The translations under genes were made by a program, and so were the position numbers. The notes beneath the pieces are model-generated. The model saw only the letters and a list, made by a program, of their open reading frames with translations. It did not search any database and had not been told where the DNA came from. Positions 5,610 through 63,842 of a DNA stretch of 64,000 nt are shown one piece after another. This DNA comes from Podarcis pityusensis (taxonomy: Eukaryota). The stretch lies in the NCBI GenBank assembly GCA_964106645.2, contig OZ067046.1; one strand, given 5' to 3'. Every line of letters starts with the position of its first letter. Within the stretch, counting starts at the first letter, position 1.

Positions 5610-6266
5610 CAAGTTAGTTAAAATGTAGATTAGAAATTGCATTTACAGTGGTACCTCGGGTTAAGTACGTAATTTGTTCCGGAGGTCCATTCTTAACCTG
5701 AAACTGTTCTTAACCTGAAGCACCACTTTAGCTAATGGGGCCTCCTGCTGCCGCCGCACTGCCGGAACATGACTTCTGTTCTTATCCTGAAGCAAAGTTC
5801 TTAACCCGAGGTACTATTTCTGGGTTAGCGGAGTCTGTAACCTGAAGCGTATGTAACCTGAAGCATATGTAACCCGAGGTACCACTGTAAAGGCAAACCA
5901 ACCTAATGAACACTTTCTGAAACAATATGCAAATGAAAACATGGCTGTCTTTTGAAATTTGCACTGCTCTGAATTTTGCAGAGGTTCGGCAGCCAAGTAA
6001 TATGTACAAAAATGCATAAATTAGTGAAAGTAGCATATAAAATAATTTATGGGAGGAGAAAATGCTTTGCAAAAATATGTATGGTAGGCAAAATTGCATA
6101 TATTAGGAGTGTATCTTAGGAAATACACTAAAATGCTACTGAATTTTCATTAAAACCTATTGTTAAAAAAATAAAAACTGATGTGGAAATGTGGAGAAAT
6201 GTGAATTTAAGAGTGGAAAAATGAGAAACCAAAAGGAACTGAAACTGACAGCTTTGCCTATCCCTT
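5610..6266. mobile_element. Old AT-rich non-autonomous DNA element (hAT-Ac-like), interrupted by a Tigger-like MITE
   Basis: Right end ...gcctatccctta resembles a TAGGGATG-type TIR; similar diverged body at 30120-30686; left boundary approximate. Confidence 0.4.
5646..5887 (+). mobile_element. Tc1/mariner (Tigger/pogo-like) MITE, family A, 242 bp
   Basis: TIRs CAGTGGTACCTCGGGTTA / TAACCCGAGGTACCACTG with TA TSD; near-identical copies at 6806-7047 and 26738-26979. Confidence 0.92.
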
Positions 6267-6797: not shown

Positions 6798-7226
6798 CAG
6801 TAGTAAAGTGGTACCTCGGGTTAAGTACTTAATTCGTTCCGGAACTCCGTTCTTAACCTGAAACTGTTCTTAACCTGAAGCACCAATTTAGCTAATGGAG
6901 CCTCCTGCTGCTGCTGCGCTGCCGGAGCACAATTTCTGTTCTCATCCTGAAGCAAAGTTATTAACCCGAGGTACTATTTCTGGGTTAGCAGAGACTGTAA
7001 CCTGAAGTGTATGAAACCTGAAGTGTATGTAACCCAAGGTACCACTGTACCTCCGGTTATGTAACCCTGTGGTTGCGTAAACTTCGGGATGCGAAAACGG
7101 CAAACCCGGAAGTATTTTACCAGGTTTGCTGTGTGTGCATTTGCGGAAGCGGTTCTCAAGTTGCAGAAACCTCGGGATCCCACTGGACCTCCAGAACGGA
7201 TCCATCCGCAACTGGAGGTACCACTG
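6798..7226 (+). mobile_element. Tigger-like MITE, family B (outer), split by an inserted family A MITE
   Basis: TA-CAGTAG[TA insert TA]CCTCCGGTT ... AACTGGAGGTACCACTG-TA; internal CAAACCCGGAAGTA shared with 41640-41830. Confidence 0.85.
6806..7047 (+). mobile_element. Tigger-like MITE, family A (nested copy)
   Basis: Same sequence family as 5646-5887; flanked by TA at 6804-6805 and 7048-7049. Confidence 0.92.
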
Positions 7227-13832: not shown

Positions 13833-14967
13833 CTGTGAGTGTTGCAAACTGGAAGACTTATTATGCAGTCTGAAACATAAGACAGATATTTCCGGTCACT
13901 GTCTCTTCTTGTCTGTGCCAACAGAAATTGCCTGACTACTAGGGAGCAGAGCCTGAGTGGTGGACTGGAGGCCCACTTGCAAAGCCATCTGCCCGAGAAG
14001 TGGCAAACAGACTTATTGGGGTAACTCCAAATAGTTTACATGTTTCTCCATCAGGCAACTTATAGTCTTGCTGTTGTCTTCTGACTCATCCACTTAAATG
14101 TTAAGCGTAAGTATTTATGCATAGACCAGCAGTTTATGAATCACAGCCATAGAAATCTATTGGCAAAGTAGCAAATCCTACCATTTATTCAAATATACCC
14201 TCTGACATTGCTTCAAGTCAGAAATAACAGATGTTAGTAAGACTCCCACATGTGCATTGCTTCTCTTACCATATTATAGGCCTATAAAGGATTTATTCTG
14301 CAGATTTCTTTACATCTTTAATACCGTGTTGTTACAAAACGCTCTGAGAACCCAGCATTTTTGCAATTATAACTGGCGTAGTGTATACCTTATGGAAGTA
14401 TTAACATCTGAGGCATCTACAGGCTGGAGCTATGTCTGACATATGAGAACAGGATACTGGTGAAAACATTCCCATATCTACTTATCCCAGTCCTCCCCAC
14501 AATTTAAAGAAATGCTCACGCTTGTGCCCACTACACCTCAACAGATGTGACTTGTGGGGCAGAGAGACTTGCAACATGATGTTAGGAGAGGGTGTTCCCA
14601 CACATTTCAGGAAAGAGGAACGTTAAGCATGAAGGTATTATTTTCAGCAGGATCCCACATATTTCCTTTAGTCATGTCCTCTGAGTTACATGTCAGTGCT
14701 ATCCAGCATAGACATATAAGGAAAGGGATCAGAGCCATGTGTGCCACTGTGACTCCAGAAATAAAATCAGAGGTGCTAGTAATGGAAAGATGAAGAAAGA
14801 TGAAGCGGAATGGAGTGGAGACTTATTCACTCCAGTCCACCACTTAGGCTCTGCCCCCTAGTAGTCAGACAATTTCTGTTGGCACAGACAAGAAGAGACA
14901 GTGACCAGAAATATCTGTCTTAAGTTTCAGACTGCATAATAAGTCTTCCATCTTGCAACACTCACAG
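13833..14967. repeat. 138-bp inverted repeat (13833-13970 / 14830-14967), 7 mismatches, 859-bp spacer
   Basis: Manual alignment of the left arm to the reverse complement of the right arm. Confidence 0.95.
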
Positions 14968-15562: not shown

Positions 15563-15700
15563 CAGGACTGGGGAACCTGCAGCCCTCTGGATTTTGTTGG
15601 ACTCCAAATCCCATCAGCCCCAACTAGCATGACCAGTGGTCAGGGATAATGGGAGTTGTAGTTCAGCAGCACTGAGCGAGCCAGTGTTTTCCCAGCCCTG
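15563..15700. mobile_element. Short hAT-Charlie-like MITE (about 135-bp family)
   Basis: CAGG...CCCTG termini; 8-bp TSD CTGTATAG/CTGTTTAG; internal palindrome; relatives at 26301, 33192 and 59929. Confidence 0.8.
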
Positions 15701-16204: not shown

Positions 16205-16587
16205 GAGGGTGGTGCTGTGGTCTAAACCACTGAGCCTCTTGGGATTGCCGATCAGAAGGTTGGCGATTCGAATCCCTGCAACAGGGTGAGCTCCTGTTGC
16301 TCGGTCCCAGCTCCTGCCAACCTAGCAGTTCAAAAGCACATCAAAGTGCAAGTAGATAAATAGGTACCGCTCTGGCGGGAAGGTAAACGGCATTTCCGTG
16401 CACTACTCTGGTTTTGGTGTTCCGTTGCACCAGAAGCAGCTTAGTCATGCTGGCCACATGACCCGAAAAACTGTCTGCGGACAAATGCCGGCTCCCTTGG
16501 CCTGTAAAGCGAGATAAGCACCACAAACCCAGAGTCGTCTGCGACTAGACTTAACTGTCAGGGGTCCTTTACCTTTACCTTTACCTT
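16205..16587 (+). mobile_element. Sauria SINE, near full length
   Basis: tRNA-related head (GGTGGTGCTGTGG...GATTCGAATCC), AGTAGATAAATAGGTACC core, (ACCTTT)n tail, TSD TATTCACACACACA. Confidence 0.92.
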
Positions 16588-16588
16588 T

Positions 16589-16591
<3 letters not shown>

Positions 16592-16623
<32 letters not shown>
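16592..16623. repeat. (CA)n microsatellite within the SINE 3' TSD
   Basis: Direct reading. Confidence 0.9.
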
Positions 16624-16632
<9 letters not shown>

Positions 16633-16929
16633 TCTATATTCATCTAACCATCCATCCACACTCATACATACATTTATCTTCCAGCTATGCGGTCTTTTAA
16701 ACCTCATCTCTCTCTTTCTTTCTCCCCTAATTTCTCCCCTTATCTCTTTTCCCCTACTCTTATCTCCCATGGCAATTAGGCTTAGGAAAAAATTCCATTC
16801 ACATGAATAAAACCGTCAGTGCAATTGCTCAAAGTCAATACAATTGTTTCCCTGTGAAGGTTAGGATGAGCCTCTTCCTGGTGGTTTTCTTTAGGGGCTG
16901 CAAGGCCTCTGGTCCTGGATAGCTTATGG

Positions 16930-26418: not shown

Positions 26419-26737
26419 ACTTAACGTTTGATCTTATTGACAAAAGTATTAGGAATAATGATACATATCAATACAACATCATTTCATAATTACAAAGGGT
26501 TGTATCCAATGGCAGCTTTATCTTAGAAGATCAGGCTTCTGTTTGTTCAAACTGGAACACCCCCATGGGAAACCATGGGTTCATCCCAGATTCAAGCATC
26601 ACCAAAACGTCATCCTTTACCTAGATTTGACAACATTGCAGTCTTTGCTTTCCCATTGTGCTGCACTTTGTTAGCTATTGCTTGAAAAGACAGAGAACCT
26701 CAGAGTACAATGACATCACATCATATGCTTTGTATTA

Positions 26738-26979
26738 CAGAGGTACCTCGGGTTACATACGCTTCAGGTTACATACGCTTCAGGTTACAGACTCCGCTAA
26801 CCCAGAAATAGTACCTCGGGTTAAGAACTTTGCTTCAGGATGAGAACAGAAATCATACTCTGGCGGCGCGGGAGCAGCGGAAGGCCCCATTAGCTAAAAT
26901 GGTGCTTCAGGTTAAGAACAGTTTCAGGTTAAGAATGGACCTTTGGAACAAATTAAGTACTTAACCTGAGGTACCACTG
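26738..26979 (-). mobile_element. Tigger-like MITE, family A, opposite orientation
   Basis: Reverse complement of 5646-5887; TA TSD. Confidence 0.92.
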
Positions 26980-29333
26980 TATTAAAAGAAATGTTACTGA
27001 GCACCAGATAAGCATTAGGCTGAGCTGTAGTTTTCTGCAGCTGCCATGCGTTCTCTATAACATCTGTTTCTAGTCAAAGTAAACAGTATTGTCCTGCAAT
27101 CCTAAACATGTTTACTCATAAGTGACTCTCATTTATTTCAATGGGAGTTACTTCCCTGTAAGCTTATGCTTGCATCTTCAAATAATAAACAGTGTTATGA
27201 CATTGTAGTCAGGTTGAATAATATTCATATCGGCTATCTATAGAACCAGCTTGCATAAGAATCTATTTGGAATAAGTATTTTGAAAATGTCTCCAAGACA
27301 GGTTCAGACACATAAAAACCAGCAATCCATTTCAGAATAGAGCTCAGATGTGAAATGTTATACTTTTCTGACTTATTTAACATAACCAGTTTCCACTTGA
27401 AACATGAAATATACTCTTGTGTATTTGTGTGTGTTCAGAATAGGATTATATTTTCCTAAAATTATTATTCTTCATATACATTTGCACTCTGCCACAAAAC
27501 CACTTTACTGTGACTCTCTAACTCTAAAGACTCTGAAGTACGAATGGATAAAAGAGTCCTAATCCAGTCTGTGTTCCCTGCACATGAGTAGATCATCAAA
27601 TCCATCCCTGGTTCACGTGGATTTTTTAAAAGGAAATATCCTTAAAAGTCTGCATGCTTTTAACAAATTTAAATTGTTTTTGGAGAACTTATGAGGGTTT
27701 CCCTGGTTATTTATTTATTTTTAAAAAACTGTTATCAATCCAGGATATATGTCCAATATTCACTGTTGTTTCAGAGTAAAAGCAATATATAATTGATCTC
27801 TCCACCTCACCACAATTTGCATTGTGTTTCCTTTGCGTTGAAATAAATGGTGTTGAAGAATGTAATTTATTATGGAAAATTCCATAACAGGTCACAGTGA
27901 GACAAATAATGCAGTTTTTGTTGGAAGCTGAACGGCGGCAGAATGAAAACAGCAATGCATGTGAACAACACAGGTTGGAACAGAAATGATGTCTTCTTAC
28001 ATCCCTACCTGGATGATGGTATGGAGAAAATGATGGCATGTACCTTTGGGGGGGGGGGATCCATATATTTATCCATACAGGCTAGTAATGGTTGTATCTC
28101 AAAGTAGCTGAAAATGCCTTCCTTTAAAAAAAACAACAACAGAGAAGTTCTCAGGCCACCTTGTACTAATGTAAATTGGAACAAACCATGCTTTGGAACA
28201 GTGAATATACATGCAATCTAATCCACTTGTCTGTGCTTTGATCAGAGCATGATCTGTCAGATGTAGATTGGGGAGGGGGTTCACTCCAAATTGTGGATTG
28301 AACCAAAATTCTTCCCCATTCCTATTCTGAAGAGGTATGCCACAAATCTAGACACTGGCTAATGTTTTGTCACCAATTTCTTTAATTAAAAATATTTTTG
28401 TTTATGCCCTTAATAAAATGATACAGCACTGTTGTAACTCAGTGTGGTGTAAGATCATATTGATGCCTAAAAGGGTGGATTAATTTATATAAAAGATCAA
28501 GAAAGTAAGTTGTTTCTGGGTTATTGGCCTCTTAATCTTGTATATTAATTCAGGTAATGTACCACTACCACTATCTTCTATTTAATTATTTTTATTTATG
28601 TACCATTAAGCCCAGTTTTCATTACTTTTATTGTGGAAAGGGGATAAGTCCATTGTATTGGCGCAGCATTGTCATCTCATTTGCAATCCTCAAAAGACCC
28701 CTTTTCTTCCTGGAGAAATCAAATGACATAATCTCTGGCACTCTTTAGAAACCTTCTTTTTTATTTCTTTAATTAGGAGTTTTCACTAGGACCTCCTCCT
28801 TGAACTCTTAGCATTTTAATACACTTCTGCCTCACTAACCCGGCTGATTTTGTGCAGCACACATTCCTGATCTGCAAGAAAGCTGCTTTCTTCCAAGACT
28901 TTTCATATTCTGCCCTAATCCCTTGGTAATTACAAAGGCTCTCTCTGCAACAATAAGCAAGTCTGAGAGGAATTTCTGTTGCGGTGCTTCTCACAGAAAA
29001 ACTCTGCTTGAGCATCCCAGTTAAATTTTCTTCCCAGGAGTCTCAGACTCAGAATACAAGCCTGCAAAATGCCAAAAGAGAGGCACTCAAAGGTTATCGT
29101 GGAAACCTGGGTTGTAACAAAACTTTGGTTAAACAGGAGTGAGAAAAGAACGTCTCCTGACAAAAAATTGTTCAGTCAGGACGGGGTTAAATTCCAATTC
29201 TAAAAGCTTTGCCACAAAGATGACAGCGCTTCAAAACATTTATTTAATGGCTTATAACCATTTACCTCAGGGCTCTTTTGTAACTTTTTCTGTATTGGTT
29301 TATATATAATAGTGTTATTTGGTACATTTACCT

Positions 29334-29670
29334 CAGGAGTGGGAAAATATTTTCAGCTTGAAGGCCGCATCCCCTTCTGAGCAACCTTCCAAAGGTCACA
29401 TGCCAGAGTAGTAGGTGGGGCCAAAAGCAAAAGTAGGTGGAGCAACAAATTTAAATTTTACCTCAGCATAGTAGGCTAGTTTCTATTCACACAGTCTTCT
29501 TTATCCTCCATCTGGGCAGGCAAGAGGCATTACCAGAGTTCAAGGATACATTCCAGCCAACCAAAAACATTTGGGGAGTCCTTGATCTTGGGTGGGGAAG
29601 AGTAGAGAGGTCAGACAGAGAGACCGGCAGCTCTGTATTCTTCTCCTGTACCTGAGGGTCCTCACGCTTG
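29334..29670. mobile_element. Diverged hAT-Charlie-like non-autonomous element
   Basis: CAGGAGTGGGAAAA start with GGCCGCA subterminal motif; similar start at about 30055; right end approximate. Confidence 0.45.
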
Positions 29671-29754
29671 CATGATGTGTGACCTGGTTAAGTGGATGGA
29701 GAGATTCTGCTTCAAAAAGCCCACAGACAAACAGCTATGTAATTTTTAAAAGAA

Positions 29755-29918
29755 GCCATCTGAAAGCAGCCCTGCTCAAGGAAGTTTTTAGTGTATGATG
29801 TTGTGTTTTTGTTTTTTACTATTTTTTGTTGGAAGCTGCCCAGAGTGTCTGGGACAACCCAGTCAGATGGGTGGCATATAAATAATATATTATTGATTAT
29901 TGATTATTATTATTATTA
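29755..29918 (+). mobile_element. LINE (L2-type) 3' end with a (TTA)n-like tail
   Basis: Homologous to 19257-19345 in opposite orientation; ends in ttatt repeats. Confidence 0.6.
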
Positions 29919-30330
29919 CATGTTACACACACACACACACACACACATGTAAAAAGCCTTCATTTCCTTCTTTCTAAATATAGATGATAGTATGTACCTT
30001 TCTTTGAAAGGAAGGGCAACAGAAGGTGTCATAATTATATTTTTATGGGTATTTCAGGAGTGGGCAATGGTTTCCCCCCTCAGGGTCTACATTCCTTTGT
30101 AAACAAGCTGGCAGTGGGCTAGGAATGCTCAAGAAATTTGATTTCTGTGAATGTAAGGGGACCTGATCCACAATGACTAGTTCTAACATGCAAATAAACG
30201 TGATTATCCTTCAGATTTCTCACTTCTCTAAATTTAGCAAAATAGCTTTTGGCTAAAAAAATATACAAAATTCCCGAAACAATGTATGATAAAAAACATT
30301 TCAGATGTATTCAGTAACGGAATACGGCTG

Positions 30331-30563
30331 TATATATAAAAATAAATTTAAAAATTGTCCAGTAGCACCCTAGAGACCAACTAAGTTTGTTCTTGGTATA
30401 AGCTTTTGTGTGCATGCCAGAGGTATCTGAAGAAGTTTGCATGCACACGAAAGCTTATACCAAGAACAAACTTAGTTGGTCTCTAGGGTGCTACTGGACA
30501 ATTTTTTAATTTTTTTGTATATTTCAACTGTGTCAGACCAACATGGCTATCTACCTGAATCTA
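30331..30563 (+). mobile_element. Penelope-like retroelement terminal (pseudo-LTR) remnant with an inverted partial copy
   Basis: 68-bp inverted arms at 30350-30417 and 30439-30506 (1 mismatch); 11-bp direct repeat GAATACGGCTG at 30320-30330 and 30564-30574; carries a hammerhead motif. Confidence 0.75.
30422..30461 (+). ncRNA. Minimal type I hammerhead ribozyme motif
   Basis: Stem I GGTAT/ATACC; core CTGAAGA (30427-30433); stem II gtttgc/gcacac; GAAA (30449-30452); minimal stem III GC; predicted NUH cleavage after CUU at 30456. Confidence 0.65.
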
Positions 30564-33191
30564 GAATACGGCTGGAACTTTTTAAAAAATAAAATGCTGG
30601 TACATGTGATAACAGGACAGTATGGATTTAGGGATGAGCATATGAGAAATTGACATGGACCAGCATGATCTGTCCTCCCTGCCCTAAATATTACTACCCA
30701 GTCAGTATTACTCTTAAGAATCTGGGTGCTTTCTAAGACTTTTCTTTCTCTGCTCAGGCAAGAAGTGATGGCCCCCTAAGTTCCAGAAAAGGGGAAGGCT
30801 TGAAAGCCAGGTTTAGATGCATGTTCTCAAATGGCTGTTCTCTCTTCTTGGGCAGGCTTCTGAAAGACCAAGAAGTTGGTCACAGACATCTCTCTCCACT
30901 CCAGCCACCACACTCAGTGGCTTCTGTCTGAAAAATGGCATTCTTCGGAAAGAAAAAGAAAAAAGGTGCAGTGTGGGGCTTAGAGTGACAAAACTGTTCA
31001 TAGCCCGTCTCTTTCTATCTATCCACCAGCAAGGAATGTGTTACGCTTGGAGGGGAGCAGAGGTCACATTCAGGAAGACTGTGAGCTGCACAGTGGATTG
31101 TCCACCTCTGGTTTCGCCTTCCAATACCAGGTAAAATATAAAACACAAATCAGTAACACCTAGAGGGTTACCTTCCCTATCTCCTAAAATAATTTCTTGT
31201 GCTTTTTGTATATTTGGCATAGAAAAGAAATCACTTAATTGACCTGGCTCTTCTCCCTATGTTAATCCCCTTTGGCTGCCTATCTGCAAGGCTAAGTCTC
31301 GAAGCATGAAAATCTGAGTTTTTCTATTATCTCTAAACTCAAAACCTCTTATTTTATTTTTAATGTTTTCCCATTTGGGGGAATTGATTATCTTTCACCC
31401 TCTAGCCGCAAAGAACATTCTAAGGAGTGAAATGATTTTAGAGAGAGTTATGTTACTAGGCATGGCCTACTAAATAGGTAACCATTTCCTCCCAATTATA
31501 TTGTATGCTTGAATTCAACCAGTTCTGCCCTACACAATCTGATCAATTTTTAATCTTGGAATTCAAGCAGCCTAAGAACATAGTTCTTCGGCATCTGTGG
31601 CCTTGTTGGTGAGAGGGGAAAGGTCAAGCTTATTTAATTGTATACAGTTGTGTTAAGAACTGTGAAATAACCACAAACAGAGAGATACAAACACACACAT
31701 GATTGCTTCCAACCAATGCAACTAATTGTGGATACATAGGATTCAGGTTAAAACAGCGTACAAATTGTCAAATCACTTCATTTCTCTTATAGTGACTAGG
31801 CTGCTTCTTCTAATTTGCTGTGCTCTTGTGAAGCAGGAATCTGAAACCTTAGGGGAGGAAAGAAAACATACAAATGCTATTACAGTACACATTTCTAAGC
31901 AGCAGGAAGTCTGTAGTAAGTGTCAGATTGATCAGGATTTTACTCTCCATATAAACAACTGCTATCAAGTGTACCATGGGAAAAGGTCAGGCATTCATCT
32001 ATGCTATAATATTTTTACCAATTTAGACTTAGACAAGACTTGATGGGGAATAAATTATTGAAAACTTTAAACTTGAACCACAAGTAGCTTTAAAAGCAGA
32101 ACAGCCTTCTACTTTTACATCCTTTCCAAGGAACTTGGATTTGCCAATGTACATAAAAATATGATAGGCAAGCTTGAGAAAGATCCGCCGACATTCTGGA
32201 AGAAGTGTATTGGCAGCATATATACATTATAAACCTCAATATGCAAAAGTACATATGCATATAAAACCACATGTAAGGAAGGAAGTGTGGATACTTAATT
32301 GCTATGAATAATGTGTAGCTGTTCAGCTTAATAAACTACAGGTTTGTAGAGGCGGGCAAGACCAGAGCTCATTTTGCCCTACCTTTTATTCAGAAGTGTG
32401 AACATTCACTTATCAGTCCCCCAAATATGAGCTTGTTGAGTTTACATTACAAAACAATACAAGCAAAATGTAGCTTTATTGCAGAAAGGCCATTGCAGAC
32501 CAGTTACATAGTGTAGGTAAAGGTTTACAATAATATAATAGAAGGTGAGTAGTAGCATATGTAATGGAGCATAGAACAAATGATTAAGGTGCTGTAAATG
32601 GGGAGAGTTCAGAAATGCAGGATTTCACTTCCAATAAGAAACTGCCATCTAATGTGGTTATGTTGTTATTAAATTGCCCTATTGTATGGCACACTCTTAG
32701 CATTGTAATTAAGCATAGAGTGGTAAACGACATTGATACATCTTAAGAACACTCCAAAGGAGCATGATGCATTAAATCCTTTATAATCCACATGCATTAA
32801 GGTCCCAGGATATCATTTACACCAACTTGTTTAAACACTTAGAAAAATAAATGCACACAAATTGCACACGTTTCAACAATTACTGTGAAATAAGAGGCTT
32901 CTATGCATTACTGATAGGAAAACTTGCCTTTCCAAAACAATATCTGTCACTAAAAAGTACCTGGAGGTTTACTCAATATTTATATGTTTAAATTCCTCAG
33001 TCATTATGATTTAAGGAAGAATGATAAGCCATAAACGGCAGCAGGCAGCTTGTTTTAAAAATAATTGTATCCACTCAGAATGAATGAATCTGGGGATCAG
33101 TGATGTCAAAAAGACACTTCCACTTGCCACCATAAAAGGTTACAGCTGAATGCCACATTATCTGCATTGATTTTACACCATCACTTTAAAG

Positions 33192-33330
33192 TAGGAATGG
33201 GGAATCTGTGACCCTCCAGATTTTGCTAGACCCCCAACTCTCATCATCCCTGAGCACTGACCACACTGGCTGGGGCTGATGAGAGTTGGTGTCCAAGAAC
33301 ATATGGATGACCATAGGTTCCTTTCCCCTT
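33192..33330. mobile_element. Short hAT-Charlie-like MITE (about 135-bp family)
   Basis: TSD CTTTAAAG/CTTTACAG; shared ccctccaga...aactctcatcatccc...gatgagagttg core. Confidence 0.75.
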
Positions 33331-35819: not shown

Positions 35820-35903
35820 TCATAGAATTGTAGAGTTGGGAGGGACCATGAGGATCATCTAATCCAACCCCCTGCAATGCAGGAATTTTTTGCCCAACAT
35901 GGG
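35820..35903 (-). mobile_element. 3' part of a tRNA-Lys-derived SINE with a CR1-like tail
   Basis: Reverse-complement match to 63758-63842. Confidence 0.75.
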
Positions 35904-39300: not shown

Positions 39301-39684
39301 AATACCTCCCACATAACATCAGCAATCCAACAACAATTCAAGAGTTTGGAGGGAGACCATGAAGCATAGGAAAAGTGCCCATCTTTAGATGACAGTTGGC
39401 TCTTAAGAAATTCCAGCCTCAGTTCACTCCCAACCCTTTTTGATTCTATGGTTCTGTTATTACTGTTTGTCAGATTGTTATCCTGCCCTTCCTTCCAAAG
39501 GAGCCCAGGGCAGCGAATTAAAAATATCCAGAAAAAAGCATAGGACATGCAATCTAAACACACAACTAAAATAATTCCATGGTTAAATCCTGTCATCAAA
39601 ATGCCTGGTCAGAAGAAGGCATCTTACATTGACCCTGAAAGACTTTTGTGGATTGCCAAAGAAGGCTGGAACACAGTTAAAGCA

Positions 39685-39722
<38 letters not shown>
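39685..39722. repeat. (AAT)n microsatellite, probably the tail of a minus-strand LINE 3' end that extends to about 39840
   Basis: Direct reading; adjacent sequence resembles L2-type 3' ends. Confidence 0.85.
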
Positions 39723-39723
<1 letters not shown>

Positions 39724-40089
39724 CACCCTTCATCCGAAGATCACAGGGCAGTTTACACAACAAAAACACAAAAATATCTAGCACAGGAACAAACATAAAC
39801 AACCCCCCCCCCCCATGTAAAAGGCCATAGATTCTTTAATCTAATGGGAGAAGAGGAATGTTTAGCTACCACACAACCTTTTCCAAGAGGGGAACCTGGC
39901 TGTGCTCTTCAGTAATGACTCCACCAGTCTAGCGCTCCCATCCCTTTCACCCCATTGCCATTGAAATCACAGGAGTGACAGCTGCCATGGCAACCCTATA
40001 GCCTTTGAAGTCCTTCTGCTCTCTCCTCAAGTTCTGCTGCTCTTTCTTCTGCACATGCTTTGCAGAAATCTCCCTACTCAGTTCCAAGT

Positions 40090-40235: not shown

Positions 40236-40555
40236 CACTACCTGCAGAGACAAAGAAAAAAGAGAGAACTGTGTCTGTCATGACTTGCTTGAGGACTTCC
40301 TGGACAACATTGAACATCTGGCATGCTACAGTTGGAAACAAAATGTTGCACTAGATTAACCTGCATATTTCAAAGAATAGGATTCTCAGAGCTAGAGAGC
40401 AGTGAAAAGGAACCTCTCTTAAATATCTCTACTATCCAATTTGATATGAAGAGGGGACTGTTGAAACTGTATTTCTCAGCTGTATAAATTGCAGGCAGAA
40501 CATTTGGTTATATCCAGAAGGCTGTAAGCAGCTTTTTCAGAGCCTGAACCTCTAT

Positions 40556-40615
40556 AAAGGTATAGGTAAAGGGTAAAGGGACCCCTGACCGTTAGGTCCA
40601 GTCGCAGACGACTCT
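40556..40615 (-). mobile_element. 5'-truncated Sauria SINE 3' end
   Basis: ggtaaagggacccctgacc.tta.gtccagtcg..a.cgactct matches 53415-53458. Confidence 0.85.
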
Positions 40616-41010
40616 ATTAATTAACCACCCACATTAATAGCTGGGAGGCATTGTAATCTAAGACTGGATAGTCTTCAGAATACCTATATGTAGTGGGCAC
40701 TGTAACCTCAGCTCTTTAAAATCTAGGCATGCAATATAGGATTGCAAACCACTATAGGATTGCAAAAGATATCGAACATAGGACATATGAATCCTACTGC
40801 CCACACTCTGCCTCTATCAGGAAACAATAAACATAATTAATGCAGCAATATCTCATTTTCTAACATTTTCTTTAAGTAATTGGAAACAGCACCTTGTTAG
40901 TCCCCAGTGGTCCTATAGTTCTAAAGGTTAACTCTGTAAGATTCACTTCAATTAGCAAGATATTCCTCACATCACATCAGACTCTCTTTCAATTTCAATA
41001 ATCAGACAGT

Positions 41011-41630
41011 CTGTTGAGTGTGCCAGCCCTGACCAAGCGTGGCTTTAATGTAAATTTAAATCACAACAAATGTGCAGTTACCAAAGATGGAGTTTTGTAC
41101 GCACAAGGTTTTTGAAAATAATGGAGTCTTTGTGCTAGAAACAGTTCAAGAGTGAGCAAATATGGTAAAGAAGAATTCAAGTGCAACCTGTGTTCATCTG
41201 TGGCACAAAAGGCTTGGGCATAGAGGCTTTGGGATTATAGCAGACCTGCCAAAGAAAGGTTTGGTGAGAAGAATGGAAATTAAACCTAGCAAAGTTGACC
41301 TGAATAGTGAAATATGTGGAAGTTGTTTGTTGAGGAAGAGAACAAGACCTTCTATCCCCAAGCAAAGCCAGAAAAGTTCCACATAGCCTTTGCAACCTAT
41401 TCATACTGAAAAATGTGGTCCAATTCAACTGATGTCTCATGAGGAAAAACAACAAAATGTGAAAATGACTTTTCTGCTTGTATATGTTGATAACATGATT
41501 TTGGTTACTGTGAACAAAGATTGTACAAAAAAATTGAGATTTTTGAGAATTTACATGCTAGATTAAAATTGATTAATTCAAATTAGGCATATGGACTGTA
41601 AGAAAAACACTGGGGTCTAATTTGAATCTG
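41011..41630 (+). pseudogene. Ty1/Copia LTR-retrotransposon pol fossil (pre-integrase/HHCC region, integrase start, RT YVDD region)
   Basis: LLSVPALTKRGF; LWHKRLGH...CGSC; PLQPIHTEKCGP (cf. IHxDxCGP); FLLVYVDNMI (cf. YVDD); contains stops and frameshifts. Confidence 0.85.
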
Positions 41631-41639
41631 TTTATAGTA

Positions 41640-41830
41640 CAGTCAAACCTCTTCTTACGTCTGTCTCCACTTGCGTCCATTTCACCCAATGTCCGCAGCA
41701 AACCCGGAAGTAACCGGAGGGTTTGCCGCCGGTCGTGCATGCGCAGAAGCAGCACTCACCACCTGCGCCTCTCCCAGCAACCCGTTTCAACCTCCGAAAC
41801 AGATTATGGTTGCAGGTAGAGGTTTCACTG
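41640..41830. mobile_element. Tigger-like MITE related to family B, 191 bp
   Basis: TA-CAGTCAAACCTC...GAGGTTTCACTG-TA; CpG-rich; shares CAAACCCGGAAGTA with 7050-7226. Confidence 0.85.
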
Positions 41831-42427
41831 TAGTTTATAGGTGTATATAAACTATATATTGTAATATATTGTAAACTATATATTGTAATGGCACCACAGT
41901 CTCTGCTGCGCTTTGTTCCAAAGGAAACAGAAACTTGGGGTAAGCCCTTGGATTCTCGCACTGGGTGGAGATGGGGTGTTGTGTAACACTATTTTAGATG
42001 CATGGGATGCATTCTAAACATATAATATATAACATCGAGGCCATACTAAATGTGTGAGGCAATCAGCTGTAACCTTCCAATCCTCTTCTGGTTTTCTCTC
42101 ACCCAGCCCAGCTCTCATATCCAAAATGAACTAGGCAGACCAAAGCGAAATACACTAATTTCAGCAAATCTCTATGACATAAATCTGAAGCTCTCTTTTT
42201 AATATATTTATATATAGAGGGTAGGAGTTAATTGTTTCTTTTGATTTCAGAATGAACACATCCCATGCATCTTGGGGAACTGTGGCATATGGTATGATTA
42301 CTTTCCCCTGCAGAGTGACACCTTTTGTTTATATGGACGTAAATACAATGTATAACCCTCTCATGTGGTGTTGCCACAGCTAAACAGAAGACAGGCACAG
42401 GGAAGCTCACCAAAGCTTTCTTCCTGG

Positions 42428-53410: not shown

Positions 53411-53762
53411 AAAAGGTAAAGGGACCCCTGACCATTAAGTCCAGTCGTGACCGACTCTGGGGTTGCGGCACTCATCTCGCTTTATTGGCCGAGGGAGCCA
53501 GCGTACAGCTTCTGGGTCATGTGGTCAGTATGCCTAAGCCGCTTCTGGCGAACCAGAGCAGCACGTGGAAACGCTGTTTACCTTCCTGCCGGAGCGGTAC
53601 CTATTTATCTACTTGCACTTTGACATGCTTTCGAACTGCTAGGTTGGCAGGAGCAGGGACCGAGCAACGGGAGCTTACCCTGTTGCGGGGATTCAAACTG
53701 CCGACCTTCTGATCGGCAAGTCCTAGACTTTGTGGTTTAACCCACAGCACCACCTGCGTCCC
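53411..53762 (-). mobile_element. Sauria SINE, full length
   Basis: Minus strand begins GGGACGCAGGTGGTGCTGTGGGTTAAACC and ends in an ACCTTT tail; 13-bp TSD TTCTGTTGT(G/A)TTA. Confidence 0.93.
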
Positions 53763-59045: not shown

Positions 59046-59928
59046 AGGGGTGATTGGTGGTGCGTGAGGTCTGCATCTAAGGGATGTATGGTCTGGGATG
59101 AGGATAAGGGCCGCTTCTGAGGTTGACCTGCCTCACCAATGCAGAGTTGCAGGTCCCTGGGGGGTAGTGATGAGAGAAGGTCTCCTTACTCACCTTCAGG
59201 GTGTGGCTGGGCTCAGGGGTAGCCAGATATGGTTCCCTGGGCCCAGCAGGGGTTTGGTTGCCCTTAATGCTGCAGCATTTTCAAAAAGACAAGCAGCTCC
59301 CACACCCATAGTTTTCCTCTGCTGGTTTGGTTTTATATAAATATTCCCTTATTCAACCCAGCTATACATCTCTGTGTGTTTATTTGGAAGCAATGCTGTT
59401 TTGCTATCAGACATGCACATACTTTGTCAAGAAGGAAGTCTTGTTCCGTAGACTATTCCATTTCTACAGTATTTTCAGAATATGAAAACTACCAACGTAT
59501 ACTTATTTGGAGATCAATTGAGTGACATATTTTGTCATAAGGAGATTCTTGCACAGTTCAAATGGCCAAGAGAATTAGCCCTCGGCATTGTTATCTGATC
59601 ATTCAGTTCAAGGTGACAAACATTTAACCACTGAGGAGTTTAATGACATTCACAACAAGTCAGACCAACAGCCTACACTTGCATGTCCTCTGCCTGCTAT
59701 TGGAGAATCAATTCTAGAATCAAGTTCAGCAGGGGAGGCACTTGGTAGCCACTTAAGGCCGGAGCTGATCTTGTAGTGTAATATCACTATAAATAATCCT
59801 GCAGTGCTACAGTTCCCACCAGTCTCTGTAATGGATAAAAGAGGTGAAGGGAGCCAGGAAGTCAGGAACTAGCCACATAGTCTAATCTAGATTAGGATAG
59901 ATTATTTAGTCTAATCTAGAGATTAGAC

Positions 59929-60064
59929 CAGGCTTCCTCAACCTCGGCCCTCCAGATGTTTTTGGCCTACAACTCCCATGATTTCTAGCTAGCAGGGCCA
60001 GTGGTCAGGGATGATGGGAATTGTAGTCTCAAAACATCTGGAGGTCCGAAGGTGAGGAAGCCTG
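59929..60064. mobile_element. Short hAT-Charlie-like MITE, young copy, 136 bp
   Basis: TIRs CAGGCTTCCTCA / TGAGGAAGCCTG; perfect 8-bp TSD GATTAGAC. Confidence 0.92.
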
Positions 60065-60699
60065 GATTAGACTAACTGTTACTGGAACAAATAAGTTAAA
60101 ACTATTCACTCTCTAAAGAGAATTGTTAAACAAACCCAAGAGACACAAAAATTCCCACATGGACAACAATGCTACAAACCAACTGAGGACTTTGACTTGG
60201 AGACTCTAATAATACAAGGCAACATTTATATGGCACCAGTAGAAATGACAGGAGGTAGGATCACAAAGCAGCATTTTGACAACTATGAGAAAGATAATTA
60301 TGCACCTTTCTGAACATCACTTTCCTTGTCGCCACAGCTGGCACAGGTTATATTATAGGCTCCATGGATATATTATAATTTATTTATCAAGGTTGTTCAA
60401 ATGTGCATGGGGATGCAGATTTGTCTCTGCACCACCAACAAAAACGCAACATTTCTGTTGCAAGGATATTGGTGGCATGTGTCAGACCCCCCCCCCCATC
60501 ACAAACACATGCCATGGCATTATTTAAACTTTTTATTTGTTTTATTTTATTTAGAAAGTGAGTGCTCCCAGTCTTTCCTTGACAGTCATTACCAAATGCA
60601 CCTTTATGTTCTGTTTATAGAATCTAGAGTACTTTGTGAATGAAAAATTATGTTCAAGCTCTGTAGTTTCATACCAGAAATGTTAGAAATACTGATACT

Positions 60700-63700: not shown

Positions 63701-63842
63701 GCCAGGACAGGCTCAGTCAGAGCATGAGACTCTTAGTCTCGAAGCTGTGGGTTCAAGCCCCATGTTGGGCAAAAATATTCCTGCATCGCAAGGAATTGGA
63801 CTAGATGATCCTTGTGGTCCCTTCCAGCTCTACAATTCTATG
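63701..63842 (+). mobile_element. tRNA-Lys(CTT)-derived SINE with a CR1-like 3' tail
   Basis: gctcagtc..agagcatgagactctta.tctc...gtgggttcaagcccca.gttgggc matches tRNA-Lys; followed by ggactagatgatc...ggtcccttcca.ctctacaattctatg. Confidence 0.85.

Follow-up and report, generated by a model that had tools for sequence, protein, structure and literature searches.

A minimal type I hammerhead motif, predicted to be inactive, in a 233-bp fold-back insertion that is likely a Penelope-like remnant

The window analysed here, a 64-kb stretch of Podarcis pityusensis DNA, is approximately 40% G+C and has a CpG observed/expected ratio of 0.20, as in a vertebrate. Its plus strand carries a 40-letter hammerhead motif at positions 30422-30461, and both the letters and the coordinates given for it in the original prediction, which was made from the sequence by itself, proved right when we re-read the sequence. 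The setting of the motif had been missed at that stage. It sits in a 233-bp insertion (30331-30563) flanked by 11-bp direct repeats that match each other exactly (30320-30330 on the left and 30564-30574 on the right); allowing for 21x61 placements, the rough chance of such a repeat is 5e-4, and we read it as a target-site duplication. Within these bounds lie two copies of one element end. The left copy (30331-30417, minus strand), delimited by a fold-back alignment, is inverted and 5'-truncated, starts inside helix II of the hammerhead and is without the 5' arm of stem I, the first catalytic box and the tail. The right copy (30418-30563, plus strand), whose bounds are set by the direct repeat and the arm junction, is a direct copy that appears to be a pseudo-LTR fragment and holds the whole hammerhead motif together with a tail of 39-41 nt (30523-30563, plus strand). 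Alignment of the two copies places this tail in the direct copy only, in that the left copy, read from the minus strand of its arm, ends approximately 39-41 nt before the right one.

The two copies create inverted arms of 84 nt each (30334-30417 and 30439-30522) that are 95% complementary and separated by 21 nt, so that the motif occupies the turn of the fold-back. Of the 84 positions compared between the arms, 4 differ, and three of these fall in an outer T/A-rich run. The remaining difference is a CpG-type change at 30407, where the left copy's equivalent of G12 reads A; the same CpG is intact in the right copy, in which all catalytic-box letters are kept, and a single event of this kind says nothing on selection. 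By its sequence the insertion looks fairly young, with the qualification that the arms of a palindrome can be homogenised.

The hammerhead itself can be laid out in full on the plus strand, from the sequence and from a published descriptor. Stem I consists of five Watson-Crick pairs between its 5' arm (30422-30426) and its 3' arm (30457-30461). The first catalytic box runs from C3 at 30427 to A9 at 30433 and is followed by an extra A at 30434, ahead of helix II (30435-30448), whose closing pair is G10.1-C11.1. The GAAA box (G12-A15.1, 30449-30452), half of a palindromic helix III (30452-30455, ending in U16.1) and U17 together occupy 30449-30456, and cleavage is predicted between 30456 and 30457. 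Since the helix III half is self-complementary, it can pair only with a second copy. The 2-nt loop of the short helix II originally drawn cannot close; a workable helix II has five positions, comprising four pairs and a U.C mismatch at 30437/30446, and a self-complementary loop of 4 nt. Both boxes, CUGANGA and GAAANNUH, are intact in the right copy and every core position is kept. In addition, the marks of the minimal hammerhead class (min-HHR) are all present, namely an extra nucleotide between A9 and 10.1, a G10.1-C11.1 pair and palindromic positions 15.2-16.2, and the five pairs of helix I fall inside the min-HHR range of 3-7 bp.

We coded the supplementary descriptor of Cervera and De la Pena (2014, PMC4209133), which specifies an uninterrupted helix II of 3-7 bp and a loop of 3-10 nt, and ran it on both strands of the window. 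In its strict form it returned no match on either strand, which for this motif is because of the U.C mismatch in helix II. Relaxed to one mismatch in a helix II spanning five positions or more, the descriptor returned a single match in the window, which is the motif described here. Among 1000 dinucleotide-shuffled windows, 6 contained a strict match and 10 a one-mismatch match, and requiring at least five positions in both helices left a match in 3 of 1000. Searches of Rfam at E<=10 yielded 21 matches across 11 kb, with no hammerhead family among them, and 0 matches for a 64-nt segment containing the motif. The best of these matches is to a hairpin-shaped microRNA model at 60.4 bits, below its 95-bit threshold; we rejected the microRNA matches, which reflect hairpin shape only and are all under their family thresholds. 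Collectively, the one-mismatch descriptor match and the architecture of the insertion support the original identification of the motif as a minimal type I hammerhead such as Penelope-like elements carry. On sequence grounds we place it in the min-HHR class as a slightly decayed copy, with all tested sequence features of that class except an uninterrupted helix II.

A published min-HHR example from the turtle Chrysemys picta bellii, shown in Fig. S3 of PMC4209133, allows a more direct comparison. By eye, the two catalytic boxes of the turtle row are identical to those of our motif through the cut site, extra A included, and the two sequences share the type I layout, the G10.1-C11.1 pair, a two-base palindromic helix III, U17 and a helix II of five positions. 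Two of the differences between the rows are compensatory: at the third pair of helix I, C-G of the turtle corresponds to U-A of our motif, and at the fourth pair of helix II the turtle has G-C where our motif has U-A. Loop II has 7 nt in the turtle row and 4 nt, self-complementary, in our motif. The mismatched U.C position of helix II is G-C in the turtle row, and for this reason we provisionally read the mismatch as decay of this particular copy. The likeness, which concerns one sequence compared by eye, thus fits a real family motif with one pair decayed in the Podarcis copy. Unlike the turtle example, our motif adjoins an antisense arm that covers half of it.

The architecture of the insertion points in the same direction. 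Insertions of Penelope-like elements (PLEs) are described as having, next to their 5' end, a further copy that is inverted and 5'-truncated, together with a tail of 30-40 bp that is often at one end only (Craig et al. 2021, PMC8557442; such a one-ended tail is also described in PMC11167929), and rotifer PLEs as having inverted pseudo-LTRs, duplications of 8-10 bp and an optional 31-bp tail (Arkhipova et al. 2013, PMC3846280). The insertion resembles the PLE unit of the former study in joining an inverted truncated copy head to head with a direct copy, and its tail of 39-41 nt, restricted to the right copy, corresponds to the 30-40 bp tail at one end. Its duplication of 11 bp compares with the 8-10 bp of the rotifer elements. 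In contrast to a full PLE, it is extremely truncated, retaining 146 nt of the element end and no ORF. Among the 737 stop-to-stop ORFs of at least 40 aa in the window, we scanned the 237 of at least 62 aa against Pfam and found no reverse transcriptase (RT) or GIY-YIG match, nor any such ORF in or beside the insertion, as is expected for a 233-bp stub. The case for a Penelope origin therefore draws on architecture and motif likeness, not on protein, and the insertion is not assignable to a clade such as Poseidon or Neptune. With that basis, we consider it likely to be the tail-end remnant of a Penelope-like retroelement.

A useful point of reference is PAc, a Poseidon element of the lizard Anolis carolinensis described by Frangieh et al. 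(2024, PMC11167929). As reported there, the PAc protein cuts and extends both target strands, reverse transcription starts at two sites that bound the tail, the PAc hammerhead cleaves only when the element protein is added, and the Anolis RNA-seq data contained no reads starting or ending at the hammerhead cut site. PAc and the insertion have in common a hammerhead located approximately 100-130 nt from the insertion end and two end points bounding a tail, and the extension of both target strands that PAc performs in vitro would yield the head-to-head layout seen here. The two also differ, PAc being complete and having a hammerhead that cleaves when assisted by protein, and the insertion being a stub without an ORF; the likeness drawn between them is one of described features.

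These comparisons suggest how the insertion may have arisen. The endonuclease of the element would have cut both target strands 11 nt apart, after which the element end would have been copied twice, head to head, the right copy with its tail of approximately 40 nt and the whole motif, and the left copy tailless and stopping inside helix II. Each of the two target 3' ends, 11 nt apart, would then lead into an antisense copy of the element end, with the start of one copy at the tail and that of the other inside it, and this arrangement fits priming from both strands. Two routes could lead to it: both target ends may have primed cDNA, or one cDNA may have folded back on itself, the latter being discussed in PMC3846280. 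The junction at 30417/30418 has no clear microhomology and does not decide between these routes. Within the parent element, a double hammerhead formed through the palindromic helix III was likely the working state of the motif, probably assisted by the element's own protein, as is known for other families.

The motif stands alone in its surroundings. Neither the element nor its hammerhead core recurs in the 64-kb window, and a search for family copies with a 26-nt motif had no match in either viral contigs or prokaryote genomes. A further 86 metagenome loci that match a 16-nt motif were dropped as chance, given that none extends past 25 aligned bases. According to PMC4209133, most min-HHR copies are likewise single and tied to truncated elements. 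Animal non-LTR retrozymes resemble the insertion in being small and non-coding, in carrying hammerheads and in their relation to Penelope pseudo-LTRs (bioRxiv 10.64898/2026.07.22.740005, a 2026 preprint). They are defined by tandem units that each carry a complete motif, whereas the insertion is a fold-back that holds a single motif and no tandem units, and this motif is the only one in 64 kb.

We then considered whether RNA from this locus could adopt the fold required for cleavage. The whole insert folds at -147.5 kcal/mol, with a z-score of -18.9 against 200 shuffles, and the 84-bp hairpin predicted from this fold covers half of helix II, the GAAA box and the cut site and pairs the 3' arm of stem I with the inverted arm. 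By constraining stem I, helix II and the unpaired core and comparing ensembles, we obtained the cost of a cleavage-compatible layout, which amounts to 2.3 kcal/mol for the bare motif without the left arm, 4.2 kcal/mol for the right copy alone and 36.2 kcal/mol for the whole insert, whether 200-nt flanks are added or not, the last figure corresponding to approximately 3e-26 of the ensemble. Closing helix II in silico lowers this cost only to 30.0 kcal/mol, indicating that the block comes mainly from the arm and not from the mismatch. The order of synthesis would work against cleavage as well. In plus-strand RNA that enters from upstream, the antisense arm would be made first and 30439-30522 would zip into the 84-bp helix as it emerges; as a result, a transcript computed only as far as 30450, where the cut site is still to be made, has already zipped up, and by the point at which the last base of the motif is added the cleavage-compatible layout costs 27.4 kcal/mol. 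In this model there is no evident cleavage window during transcription. Minus-strand RNA carries a partial core only, and a hybrid ribozyme that uses the left arm was rejected because the minus strand is without the first box and has A in place of G12.

Pairing between two motifs, which the class needs, is not predicted to improve matters. The min-HHRs of PMC4209133 are described as showing no cleavage as monomers and low cleavage as dimers, such that a dimer is required, and a review (PMC6765202) agrees that monomers of this class are inactive and dimers weak. For two bare motifs, the double hammerhead is computed at -5.1 kcal/mol, two monomers at -10.8 kcal/mol and an inactive duplex at -25.4 kcal/mol, figures that are indicative only, as nearest-neighbour energies ignore proteins and tertiary contacts and underrate such junctions. 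The duplex forms through helix II (30435-30448) and its loop, which are self-complementary apart from one mismatch. The CUU triplet ahead of the cut site is allowed, if not optimal, GUC being best by the general rule (PMC2238771).

Taken together, we conclude with good confidence that the locus holds a minimal type I hammerhead in a 233-bp fold-back insertion, likely a Penelope-like tail-end remnant, and that the motif is predicted to be inactive because the inverted arm of the insertion pairs over it. The suggestion that it could cut any plus-strand transcript passing through the locus is consequently not supported, given how small a share of the ensemble is cleavage-compatible when the arm is present; the broken helix II, the missing partner copy in the window and the inactivity of monomers of the class reported in PMC4209133 likewise speak against it.

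Three other readings of the insertion deserve to be weighed against this one. A working cleavage site, at which plus-strand RNA is cut at 30456/30457 by a dimer formed in trans with another copy and helped by the element protein or a chaperone, could draw on the intact core, on the Anolis precedent of cleavage only with protein (PMC11167929), by which weak folding alone does not exclude activity, and on the fact that an RNA starting at approximately 30418 escapes the blocking arm at a cost of 4.2 kcal/mol. These points have to be set against the 36.2 kcal/mol incurred once the left arm is present, the preference of two isolated motifs for the inactive duplex over the double hammerhead (-25.4 versus -5.1 kcal/mol), the lack of a partner copy in 64 kb and the record of the class, in which monomers are inactive and dimers weak (PMC4209133) and no product was seen for 8 of 9 Xenopus dimer elements (a 2026 preprint); the Anolis RNA-seq described in PMC11167929, with no read ends at the cut site, also runs counter to it. 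We therefore regard such a site as very improbable. A somewhat better, though still small, chance attaches to the reading in which the ribozyme is dead and the hairpin is what matters, so that, if the locus is transcribed, its 84-bp stem would be edited or diced into small RNAs directed against the family. A near-perfect stem would form on either strand and the best Rfam match is to a microRNA model, but that match concerns shape only and lies under the family threshold (60.4 versus 95 bits), and we identified no transcript through the locus.

Least probable in our estimate is that the insertion is a fold-back DNA element of MITE-like type whose resemblance to a hammerhead arose by chance. A long inverted repeat between direct repeats, the occurrence of other fold-back elements in the window, the failure of the strict descriptor and the lack of a hammerhead match in Rfam would all be in keeping with it. 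By contrast, the arms are unequal by the tail of approximately 40 nt, such that the ends of the insertion are not terminal inverted repeats; only 10 of 1000 shuffled windows contain a one-mismatch motif; and the motif is positioned where the fold-back turns, with both boxes matching the turtle row of PMC4209133. The balance of this evidence leaves the inert Penelope-like remnant as our preferred reading.

The motif is thus real and of a kind already known from Penelope-like elements, and by our folding calculations it is probably inert at this locus. The 233-bp insertion is valuable as a clean worked example in which a target duplication, head-to-head copies and a one-sided tail occur together, and it cautions that the folding of a ribozyme motif has to be computed together with its surrounding sequence before any function is put forward. 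As a long shot, the stub might act as a conditional cut site in host RNA that is normally locked by its own antisense arm, that is opened by a transcript start in the 21-nt loop, by editing or by a Penelope protein, and that then cleaves at 30456/30457 through helix III pairing with a copy from another locus. Were this true, solo Penelope stubs would constitute retroelement-switched breakpoints in host transcripts. The account in PMC4209133 gives no in vivo evidence for a role of minimal hammerheads, and the cutting of host transcripts by solo copies would answer this open point.

Regarding the remainder of the window, no host transcript or exon was identified in the Pfam scan of the 237 of 737 ORFs noted above, a scan by which short exons would be missed. 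It gave three matches, none of them a host exon, and only a gag-pre-integrase match exceeded the cut-off. Two weak matches below it, PRC2_EED_ins (E 1.7e-4) and HYR_4C (E 2.8e-3), at 39544-39795 and 16508-16807 on the plus strand, respectively, were treated as chance. At least half of the words of 29000-32000 are contained in 20 of 24 listed sequencing runs, which span four organism codes; none of these runs is recorded as RNA and they have no bearing on expression.

Several other repeats were observed along the way. The match above the cut-off, to Gag-pre-integrase (PF13976, E 6e-12), covers 41156-41383 on the plus strand within a region of approximately 41000-42000; its frame is broken by stops, and from its sequence we take it to be a piece of a decayed LTR retrotransposon. 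A MITE-like DNA element of approximately 247 bp is present in three copies that are 89-93% alike (5644-5890, 6804-7049 and 26735-26981), the first of which was seen to have terminal inverted repeats of approximately 27 bp. A short fold-back element without a hammerhead core, 78% self-inverted, lies at 59928-60065, and weaker pieces of this sort occur at 15574-15662 and at 33213-33307, the latter with a sub-threshold Rfam microRNA match at 33220-33302. An inverted pair of 138 bp (13833-13970 and 14830-14967), 95% alike and approximately 860 bp apart, has no other copy in the window. Finally, two dispersed repeat pairs were noted, one at 16208-16576 and 53412-53754 (79% alike, and also represented at 40554-40615) and the other at 35821-35903 and 63759-63842 (88% alike).
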